In this document: positions 355 to 1,801 of the stretch, piece by piece
Layout: every line of letters begins with the position of its first letter
Numbering within the stretch: position 1 is the first letter of the stretch
Source: Thermodesulfobacteriota bacterium
Lineage (GTDB): Bacteria; Desulfobacterota_D; UBA1144; Nemesobacterales; N074bin48
Length of the DNA: 36,301 nt
Assembly (NCBI GenBank): GCA_041572575.1
Contig: JBFFSH010000022.1
Coordinates: 1 to 36,301 of the forward strand
Direction: 5' to 3'
Translations under genes and position numbers: made by a program
The notes under the pieces: generated by a model
What the model was told of the DNA's origin: nothing
The model's database searches: none
The model's input: only the letters and a program-made list of their open reading frames with translations

Positions 355-1146
355 ATGAATAATTGGGAATCTCTTAAAGAAAAAGTAGATAATATAGTAA
401 TTGATTTAGAAGTATCGCACGATAACATCGAGTCATACCCACAAATAGAAAGGTTGGTATATGATAAACTGACTGAATTGAATATAGATAGAAAAGATTC
501 TTCGTTATCAAATTACGTAAAATCTACAAAAAAAATTATCTATTATTTAGATAAATACTCTTCTTATATCATAAGTTTCAAGCACAATGATAATAAGCAA
601 GACTATCAGTTGTACTCTAAGAACATTAATCAATTATTCGCGGTAGTAGCAAATGAATATAATGATATTAACAAAAAGTTTAGTAATTCCAGTGGAATAG
701 AAAAACTTGGGCTAGGTGATTGCTTAGTGGATGCAAGCTTGTTATATCTTAAATTAAGTCAAGAATTGTTGCAACTACCTAGTCCAGAATACAGGGCGAA
801 ATATAGAGAAATAATAAAAACCCTTAAAAACATAAAACAATTGGATATTGATTTGTTAAAGAATATTTATGATTTATCTAAAGGAGAACAAACTTTAATC
901 AATAAAAACTCACTAAAGGATAATGGACTTAAGGACATAATTCTAGATTATCTAAAACAAAAGAGATATATTGATCTGACAAGTGAAGAAACAGGAATAA
1001 CCGAAAAAGGTCAGAAAATCATGAAGCGGCAGTCAGAAAGTAGTGGGAATATAACTATTAATAATATATATCAGGTATTTGGTGATATAGAAAGCGCACA
1101 GTTACAAATAAATAGTACAGATTCAAAGCAAGAAATAAAGAAATAA
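355..1146 (+). CDS. Hypothetical protein: helical N-terminal region, wHTH-like segment, C-terminal N/Q-rich motif
   Basis: 263-aa AT-rich ORF. The C-terminal part (LLKNIYDLSKG...YLKQKRYI...GITEKG...INNIYQVFGDIESAQLQINSTDSKQ) aligns by eye with the next ORF. Confidence 0.75.
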   Translation: MNNWESLKEKVDNIVIDLEVSHDNIESYPQIERLVYDKLTELNIDRKDSSLSNYVKSTKKIIYYLDKYSSYIISFKHNDNKQDYQLYSKNINQLFAVVANEYNDINKKFSNSSGIEKLGLGDCLVDASLLYLKLSQELLQLPSPEYRAKYREIIKTLKNIKQLDIDLLKNIYDLSKGEQTLINKNSLKDNGLKDIILDYLKQKRYIDLTSEETGITEKGQKIMKRQSESSGNITINNIYQVFGDIESAQLQINSTDSKQEIKK

Positions 1147-1150
1147 TTTA

Positions 1151-1801
1151 ATGTATAAAGATATGATAATGCAAAAAAAAGTACAACGTTTAAAATTTTT
1201 AGAAAAACTTTATAAATTATCAAATGGAAAATCAAATGTTTACTTTAATACTTATTATACAAAAATAGCAGAGCCACTGGGTTTTGATATTGAAACAGCG
1301 ACAGAAATTTTCGCATATTTAAAACATGAAGGTCTTATTGCAGTAACTGGTGGTACTAAAATTGCATTAACACATAAAGGATTGTTAGAATATGAATCTG
1401 CTATGACTAACCCAGAAAAAGATACAGAACATTTTCCAGCTGGCATAATAAATAATTATTTGAATGTAGGTAGTAATATTAATAATATGCAAATTCAAAT
1501 TGGAACTAAAGATTCAATTCAAACTCAATCCATCACAATTGAGAACTCAAATGAATTGATTGAATTATTAGAAGAAATTCTTAATAAAAAAGATGATTAT
1601 AAATTAGATGATGTTGATGAAGAAGAATTAATAGCTGATATAACAACTGCTAAAACTCAAATAGAATCTTCAAGACCTAAAATAGAAATAATAAAAACTT
1701 CTCTTGATTCAGTTAAGAGAATTCTTGAATCTGCTGTTGGATCGGCATTAGCAAATCAAACAGTTCAAAAGCTTATTCCTTTTATTGAAAGTTTAGGCTA
1801 A
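1151..1801 (+). CDS. Hypothetical protein: wHTH-like N-terminus, central RHIM-like motif (MQIQIG), C-terminal helical bundle
   Basis: 216-aa ORF starting 4 bp after the previous stop. Contains FLEKLYKLSNG...YLKHEGLI...LTHKG...INNYLNVGSNINNMQIQIGTKDSIQTQ. Confidence 0.8.
   Translation: MYKDMIMQKKVQRLKFLEKLYKLSNGKSNVYFNTYYTKIAEPLGFDIETATEIFAYLKHEGLIAVTGGTKIALTHKGLLEYESAMTNPEKDTEHFPAGIINNYLNVGSNINNMQIQIGTKDSIQTQSITIENSNELIELLEEILNKKDDYKLDDVDEEELIADITTAKTQIESSRPKIEIIKTSLDSVKRILESAVGSALANQTVQKLIPFIESLG

Follow-up and report, generated by a model that had tools for sequence, protein, structure and literature searches.

Adjacent ORF1 and ORF2 genes sharing an N/Q/I-rich motif: a candidate split AbiT-like defence module in a Thermodesulfobacteriota bacterium

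The window, a 36,301-nucleotide stretch of DNA from a Thermodesulfobacteriota bacterium (contig JBFFSH010000022.1), carries two closely spaced genes on the + strand near its start. ORF1 (355-1146) encodes a protein of 263 aa and is separated by a gap of 4 bases from ORF2 (1151-1801), which encodes 216 aa, or 210 aa from the ATG at 1169. Both genes are low in GC (28% for ORF1 and 27% for ORF2 vs 37% for the genome). A preliminary description of this DNA had presented them as two close, AT-rich reading frames with a common module; the coordinates, low GC, motif and winged-helix likeness were all confirmed, and every peptide quoted in that description was present in the ORF1 and ORF2 translations. 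An assembly error is not behind the split between the genes: the stop of ORF1 and the start of ORF2 were spanned with zero differences by contigs from two runs, the RNA library X15 and X2 (possibly the source). Contigs of the RNA library covered both genes, although they may reflect DNA carry-over, and promoter matches were at chance level (8 seen vs 12.1 expected). No further defence gene was recognised beside the pair. ORF2 is followed by housekeeping genes, the first of which is tsaD-like from the look of its translation, and an operon resembling the type IV pilus pilM-Q genes, named in the same way, lies at 28549-33654 with a lower GC (29-38%).

Several repeats flank the two genes. The contig opens with the end of an insertion-sequence-like repeat (1-141), which matched the ends of seven other contigs at 97-100% over 131-143 bases. 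A REP-like palindromic repeat with a core of about 60 bases and self-complementary arms lies upstream of ORF1 (164-251), and repeat comparison located a second copy downstream of ORF2 (1842-1928) that is inverted relative to the first (87% complementary over 61 bases). The gene pair is bracketed by these inverted palindromes. They were considered as the ends of a cassette, but further copies elsewhere in the genome (on contigs C98 and C21, and weakly on C66) point to a small, dispersed REP-like family. A joint of position 1899 to position 200 was rejected as an excision product; the contigs have other flanks, so the joint was read as another copy of the repeat. A second dispersed repeat was located at 2022-2115, with copies on C108 (twice) and C98. 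Sixteen of its bases form a perfect inverted match with 128-143, where the insertion-sequence end stops, and this match may mark a preferred insertion target.

ORF1, the putative sensor or nucleator of the pair, consists of a domain designated X, a winged helix and a C-terminal motif (8 relatives in the 50%-cluster library, 33 contigs). Domain X (aa 1-160; 355-834), delimited by alignment, has no family name, gave no Pfam or NCBIfam match below E 0.07 and is predicted to be helical; it also occurs alone (164 aa) and in fused forms. The winged helix of ORF1 (aa 161-226; 835-1032) matched WH_AprA weakly (E 0.063) and aligned with the winged helix of ORF2, with 18 of 76 aligned columns identical (BLASTP E 0.004). 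Judged by sequence, the two winged helices are homologous and have diverged further than the motif.

ORF2, the putative effector, comprises a winged helix, the motif and an AbiTi-like four-helix bundle, as supported by profiles, a structural model and relatives at 52-58%. The AlphaFold2 model, which was generated from a four-sequence alignment (mean pLDDT 81, pTM 0.47), placed the winged helix at residues 1-85, an unstructured stretch at 101-121 and the bundle at 125-210. The winged helix (1169-1423) was modelled at pLDDT 81-90 by blocks of ten and has a MarR/PadR-like fold (VIA Z 9.2 against MarR 5h3r, rmsd 1.6, 71 aligned). The bundle (1541-1798) had 8VER as its best fold match, with a Z of 11.6 that generic bundles can reach (rmsd 2.1, 85 aligned). 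No HeLo, MLKL or Bell chain was among the 50 matches listed in the fold comparison, and Foldseek returned no match to the ORF2 model at E 0.001 or better. The PADLOC AbiTi profile, which has no curated cut-off, matched ORF2 at E 2.6e-6 over positions 2-108 of 114, beginning in the motif, and PADLOC PDC-M14B matched at E 1.3e-8. These C-terminal matches support the link to defence that had been proposed for the pair. The same proposal ended ORF2 with ILESAVGSALANQ as an amphipathic helix; this stretch is neither the end of ORF2 nor one helix, and in the model it comprises a helix end, a loop and the start of a last helix. The last helix is moderately hydrophobic, with a best 19-residue hydropathy of 0.76 (0.6-1.7 in the family), under the transmembrane level.

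The shared element is an N/Q/I-rich motif, delimited by profile and alignment. The ORF1 copy (aa 235-259; 1057-1131) ends four residues before the stop, and the ORF2 copy (aa 100-124; 1448-1522) lies immediately before the helical bundle. The two copies are identical at 11 of 25 positions (44%), and 0.14% of 5,000 shuffles of the last 60 residues of ORF1 equalled or exceeded the motif score. A profile generated from 18 motif sequences of homologues, with ORF1 and ORF2 left out, was searched against 5,846 ORFs of the genome and matched ORF1 (E 1.6e-6) and ORF2 (E 2e-4) alone, all others having an E of at least 0.77. The motifs are enriched in Q, N, I and S, poor in K, L and E, and hardly raised in G and V (Q 15.8%, N 12.2%, I 14.5%, K 2.2% and L 3.2%, vs 5.1%, 4.9%, 9.6%, 7.4% and 10.5%, respectively, in whole proteins). 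AlphaFold2 left the motif of ORF2 unstructured, with a pLDDT below 50, about 34, at model residues 101-121, so that it is not an ordinary intradomain strand. The motif is real and well supported as a shared element of a probable defence pair.

The motif had also been labelled a RHIM, and this label did not hold. The RHIM/PP/BASS3 signature is a central G-phi-Q-phi-G (10.1101/2020.01.06.895854). The IQIG of ORF2 is real, but it is preceded by Q, so that the leading G of the signature is absent, and ORF1 has LQIN at the same place. G-x-Q-x-G was present in 0 of 22 family proteins and [IV]Q[IVL]G in 5 of 22, and the Pfam RHIM model gave no match to ORF1 or ORF2 up to E 10, a search in which short motifs can escape the HMMER filters. 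The broader claim of the preliminary description, an amyloid-like motif on adjacent genes, stood in part: the shared motif, its composition and partner-shared motifs elsewhere support it, and its identity as a RHIM was given up.

Homologues of the two proteins occur in fused, split and single forms. The eight relatives of ORF1 comprised three fused proteins (P0005, P0007 and P0010) with domain X, winged helix, motif and bundle in one chain, P0004, P0009, one domain X alone and two fragments. P0004 has the architecture of ORF1 (49% identical), and P0009 is a winged helix-motif piece that likewise ends after the motif; all three ORF1-type proteins thus keep the motif C-terminal, a position in which it joins no domains. 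In one genome (G014), two copies of a 164-aa protein made up of domain X alone were present (L012 710-1204 and L026 26-520), and no motif gene was seen adjacent to them. A single-sequence search with ORF2 found ORF2 alone, and its relatives, including P0045 (52%) and P0046 (58%), came from alignment-based searches; some carry the NCBI name 'Thermodesulfobacteriota bacterium'. P0004 and P0045 have the same sources and were each encoded on one contig of 3,118 bases, which suggests that they are adjacent and form the same kind of pair. Several genomes of one family also encode a conserved protein of 135-160 aa with a related winged helix and a common short C-terminal tail (L019, L021, L027, L029 and L031).

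Plasmids and viral contigs also encode proteins in which the motif and bundle follow AbiTii or another N-terminal domain. ORF2-like proteins had no match in the phage collection, and no split AbiT locus was found among the plasmids, phages and viral contigs searched. A Lactococcus match that was considered as a split AbiT proved to be a fused AbiTii protein (L049), an Enterococcus AbiTii locus (L055) was rejected as a pair since its neighbour lacks the motif, and two metagenome loci (L037 and L038) were dropped as chance matches to secretion proteins. Within the phylum, ORF2 was matched in 7 of 120 genomes, its own included. The remaining six had a single gene with the motif (one genome), the bundle only (one) or relatives that retain the winged helix and bundle and have lost the motif (four). 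Motif-less ORF2 relatives of 205 aa adjoin ABC transporter genes in four genomes (L006-L009), and this group is possibly a settled, non-defence offshoot.

ORF1 and ORF2 likely arose when a fused gene was partially duplicated and the first copy then lost its bundle. Such an origin explains why the motif is shared, but not why it was retained. It also allows the pair to be read as a relic, in which the motif does no more than connect winged helix and bundle flexibly, the ORF1 copy is vestigial, and the genes encode DNA-binding regulators or are independent accessory genes. The shared part, winged helix plus motif, is what duplication would yield, AlphaFold2 gives the motif as disordered, and the motif-less relatives beside ABC transporter genes fit the same idea. 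However, in ORF1-type proteins the motif is conserved like the folded domains (between ORF1 and P0004, 14 of 28 motif positions and 83 of 163 domain X positions are identical) although it links nothing there. Between the paralogs its identity is almost double that of the winged helix (44% vs 24%), and the DNA of the two motif copies has no significant similarity beyond a 12-base match, which indicates that the duplication is old. We regard the relic explanation as improbable.

The preliminary description had proposed a survey of gene neighbourhoods for paired motifs. Of 16 distinct loci that encode an AbiTi-like bundle, 2 had two motif-bearing neighbours (the window and L036; some contigs were too short to judge), as did 0 of 2 further loci. 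Most AbiTi-like homologues are single or fused. Locus L036 (866-2703) contains two overlapping genes that both encode a motif and a bundle; the second, with two motifs, resembles a partner-type gene joined in frame to an ORF2-type gene. Motifs within the ORF2 subfamily are 20-45% alike and not partner-specific: ORF2 ranked 4th of 18 for the motif of ORF1, and P0045 tied for 5th for that of P0004. Single ORF2-type genes with an intact motif also exist (L033 and L034).

The pair was compared with known systems (10.1101/2024.11.07.622273, 10.1101/2020.01.06.895854, PMC12261475, PMC13064643, PMC3710099 and PMC3985639). Like AbiT, it consists of two adjacent genes; the motif and bundle of ORF2 match the AbiTi profile, with relatives reaching 3e-13, and many homologues have an AbiTii domain joined to this motif and bundle. 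Because the AbiTi model was matched from position 2, AbiTi itself seems to include the motif. The ORF2 bundle and AbiTi also have the same best PDB fold match, 8VER, on which AbiTi was superposed in a 2026 lactococcal review (PMC13064643). In contrast to AbiT, a winged helix is added at the N-terminus of ORF2, its partner consists of domain X, winged helix and motif, and no PF18864 or PADLOC AbiTii match was obtained on ORF1 or in ORF2 (true members, E <1e-25). As reported in PMC3985639, one AbiTi homologue on its own is toxic to E. coli, and the AbiTii that belongs to it does not act as an antitoxin; L. lactis AbiTi by itself was not toxic. The AbiT literature, as far as its text was available, gives no amyloid mechanism, and the word 'amyloid' is absent from the accessible part of the 2026 review (PMC13064643). 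As for PDC-M14B, its C-terminal ~105 positions match the end of the ORF2 motif and the bundle, whereas its first ~150 positions are unmatched and ORF1 has no PDC-M14A match; no literature was found on the name 'PDC-M14'.

The Bab/Agp system of E. coli (BASS11, anti-phage) likewise has adjacent genes with a common motif of ~25 residues, a small helical effector and no NLR partner (10.1101/2024.11.07.622273). In that system the sensor carries the motif at its N-terminus and the effector carries it at its C-terminus, with the killing helix at the N-terminal end of the effector. This is the usual polarity of amyloid signalling, with the motif at the receptor N-terminus and the effector C-terminus (PMC12261475). 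The polarity of ORF1/ORF2 is the opposite, the motif being C-terminal on the partner and ahead of the effector, and ORF1 lacks the TPR-GreA/B-PIN sensor; BASS11 was compared by description rather than by sequence. The report on the BASS1-10 Bell/NLR pairs (10.1101/2020.01.06.895854) describes motifs of about 25 residues, rich in Q/N/G/V/I and poor in K/P/L, very short gene gaps, 'all-in-one' fused counterparts and 43-56% identity within cross-seeding pairs. The ORF1 and ORF2 motifs agree in length, composition and identity (44%), and one short motif occurs in adjacent, collinear gene products (11 of 25 identical, 4-base gap, two copies in the genome). The placement on receptor and effector is reversed, and the motif is not the BASS3/RHIM core. 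No Pfam, NCBIfam or PADLOC matches to NACHT/NB-ARC, TGP or Bell were obtained on ORF1 or ORF2, with libraries that may hold no Bell model. ORF1 and ORF2 therefore belong neither to Bab/Agp nor to the BASS pairs, although there is about an even chance that they work in a similar way.

Cyanobacterial proteins of the same layout were reached through the winged helix of ORF2, and 14 of 33 records were fetched, a non-random selection of mostly those annotated 'hypothetical'. A neighbour with a locus-specific, N/Q/G-rich shared motif was present in 9 of the 14 loci, as judged by eye. The partner ended in the motif at four loci, as an AbiTii (L043), NACHT-HEAT (L050), PDC-M36A-like (L051) or pentapeptide-repeat (L058) protein; in the remaining partners the motif was N-terminal or internal. 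Partner scores were compared over twelve pairs (the nine cyanobacterial pairs, L036, the inferred P0004/P0045 and the pair in the window). In 10 of them the true partner ranked first, the exceptions being P0004/P0045 (2nd) and L061 (9th; the segment of fixed length missed its motif). A permutation test gave no sum as good as the observed one in 100,000 permutations, a result that overstates the association, since loci and partner ends were picked after looking, kin are dependent and local duplication mimics the pattern. Homology of the cyanobacterial bundle to that of ORF2 was not supported (hhalign probability 0.4%), so these pairs count as analogy; beyond the winged helix and AbiTii, weak PDC-M14B matches (E 1e-4 and 4e-3) are the only link to ORF2. 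Some of the motifs may already be covered by the BASS logos, BASS7-11 in particular.

At L050 (1732-4426, on a plasmid of Calothrix sp. PCC 6303), a NACHT-HEAT protein with a C-terminal N/Q/G-rich motif is followed 13 bases on by a 132-aa protein that opens with the same motif (18/32 identical); this is a putative NLR pair in reversed polarity and a cleaner test case than the pair in the window. At L043 (1861-3202, on a plasmid of Synechococcus sp. PCC 7502), a winged helix-motif-helical gene is separated by 1 base from an AbiTii gene whose product ends in the same motif variant. At L058 (3303-6468, on a Nostoc plasmid), one motif is common to three adjacent genes, which encode a small helical protein, a pentapeptide protein with a C-terminal copy and an AAA-like protein with an N-terminal copy.

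Two further explanations accept that the motif acts. In one, it is a self-assembly element of ORF2, which acts alone, and ORF1 serves as a decoy or cap and holds ORF2 in check in the manner of an antitoxin. The single ORF2-type genes with an intact motif fit this, as does ORF1 being the fused architecture minus the effector. On the other hand, AbiTii failed to neutralise AbiTi in the one homologous pair tested (PMC3985639), and the cyanobacterial partners with a C-terminal motif include a NACHT-HEAT protein, a typical sensor; we consider restraint by ORF1 unlikely. In the other, the motifs pair as a finite beta-zipper, by strand addition into a small oligomer, and so reunite the split halves without self-propagating amyloid. 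The coexistence of fused and split forms agrees with this, as does a motif that lacks the G-x-Q-x-G core and for which we infer the amyloid state. Yet the length, composition and locus-specific variation of the motifs fit described amyloid signalling motifs, and we place little weight on the zipper.

The reading that we favour is that ORF1 and ORF2 form a split AbiT-like defence module with amyloid-type templating in reversed polarity, which we judge evenly poised between right and wrong. ORF2 would be the effector, its AbiTi-like bundle staying quiet while the motif ahead of it is unstructured, and ORF1 would combine a free C-terminal motif with a sensor formed by domain X, the winged helix or both. 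Infection would cause ORF1 to cluster, perhaps on a protein or the DNA of the phage, and the clustered motifs would nucleate a cross-beta stack onto which the ORF2 motif would be templated. The ORF2 bundles so gathered would arrest or kill the cell, and the last helix would probably bring this about at the membrane. The split-module reading is supported by the AbiTi profile match that takes in the motif, by the 8VER fold match, by the toxic AbiTi homologue against which its own AbiTii gives no protection, by fused forms (the three X-containing proteins and AbiTii-motif-bundle) that parallel the BASS 'all-in-one' vs split pattern, and by a motif that is retained at a free C-terminus with fitting composition and disorder. 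It is further supported by motif identity that exceeds that of the winged helix and lies inside the BASS cross-seeding range, and by the probable second pair P0004/P0045 and the analogous cyanobacterial pairs. Against it stand the low number of paired loci and a motif that is not partner-specific in the subfamily, motif sharing that follows from partial duplication alone, the four phylum relatives without the motif, and L. lactis AbiTi, which alone is not toxic. The last helix of ORF2, with its hydropathy under the transmembrane level, a Z within the range of generic bundles, the lack of any further recognised defence gene beside the pair, and cyanobacterial pairs that count as analogy and were picked after looking also weigh against it.

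Bab/Agp is the one worked example that was found of amyloid signalling in bacterial defence (10.1101/2024.11.07.622273). Among the papers searched, which include few subscription papers, none combined 'AbiTii' and 'amyloid', and nothing was found on the reversed arrangement. A reversed arrangement would escape the motif searches described in these papers, because those covered receptor N-termini and effector C-termini. It is conceivable, though on balance doubtful, that the pair belongs to a widespread reversed-polarity class of amyloid-coupled immunity, AbiT included, in which a motif at the end of a sensor templates the same motif before a small C-terminal helical killer; the sensors would then be domain X-winged helix, AbiTii, NACHT-HEAT and pentapeptide proteins. 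To our knowledge, AbiT has been known since 2002 without a mechanism. If this interpretation is true, AbiT would be the first characterised member of the class, and ORF1/ORF2 a split representative whose sensor domain is new. It would also bring a second effector class under amyloid-controlled cell death and, through the shared motif, allow the working of AbiT to be tested directly and cheaply.
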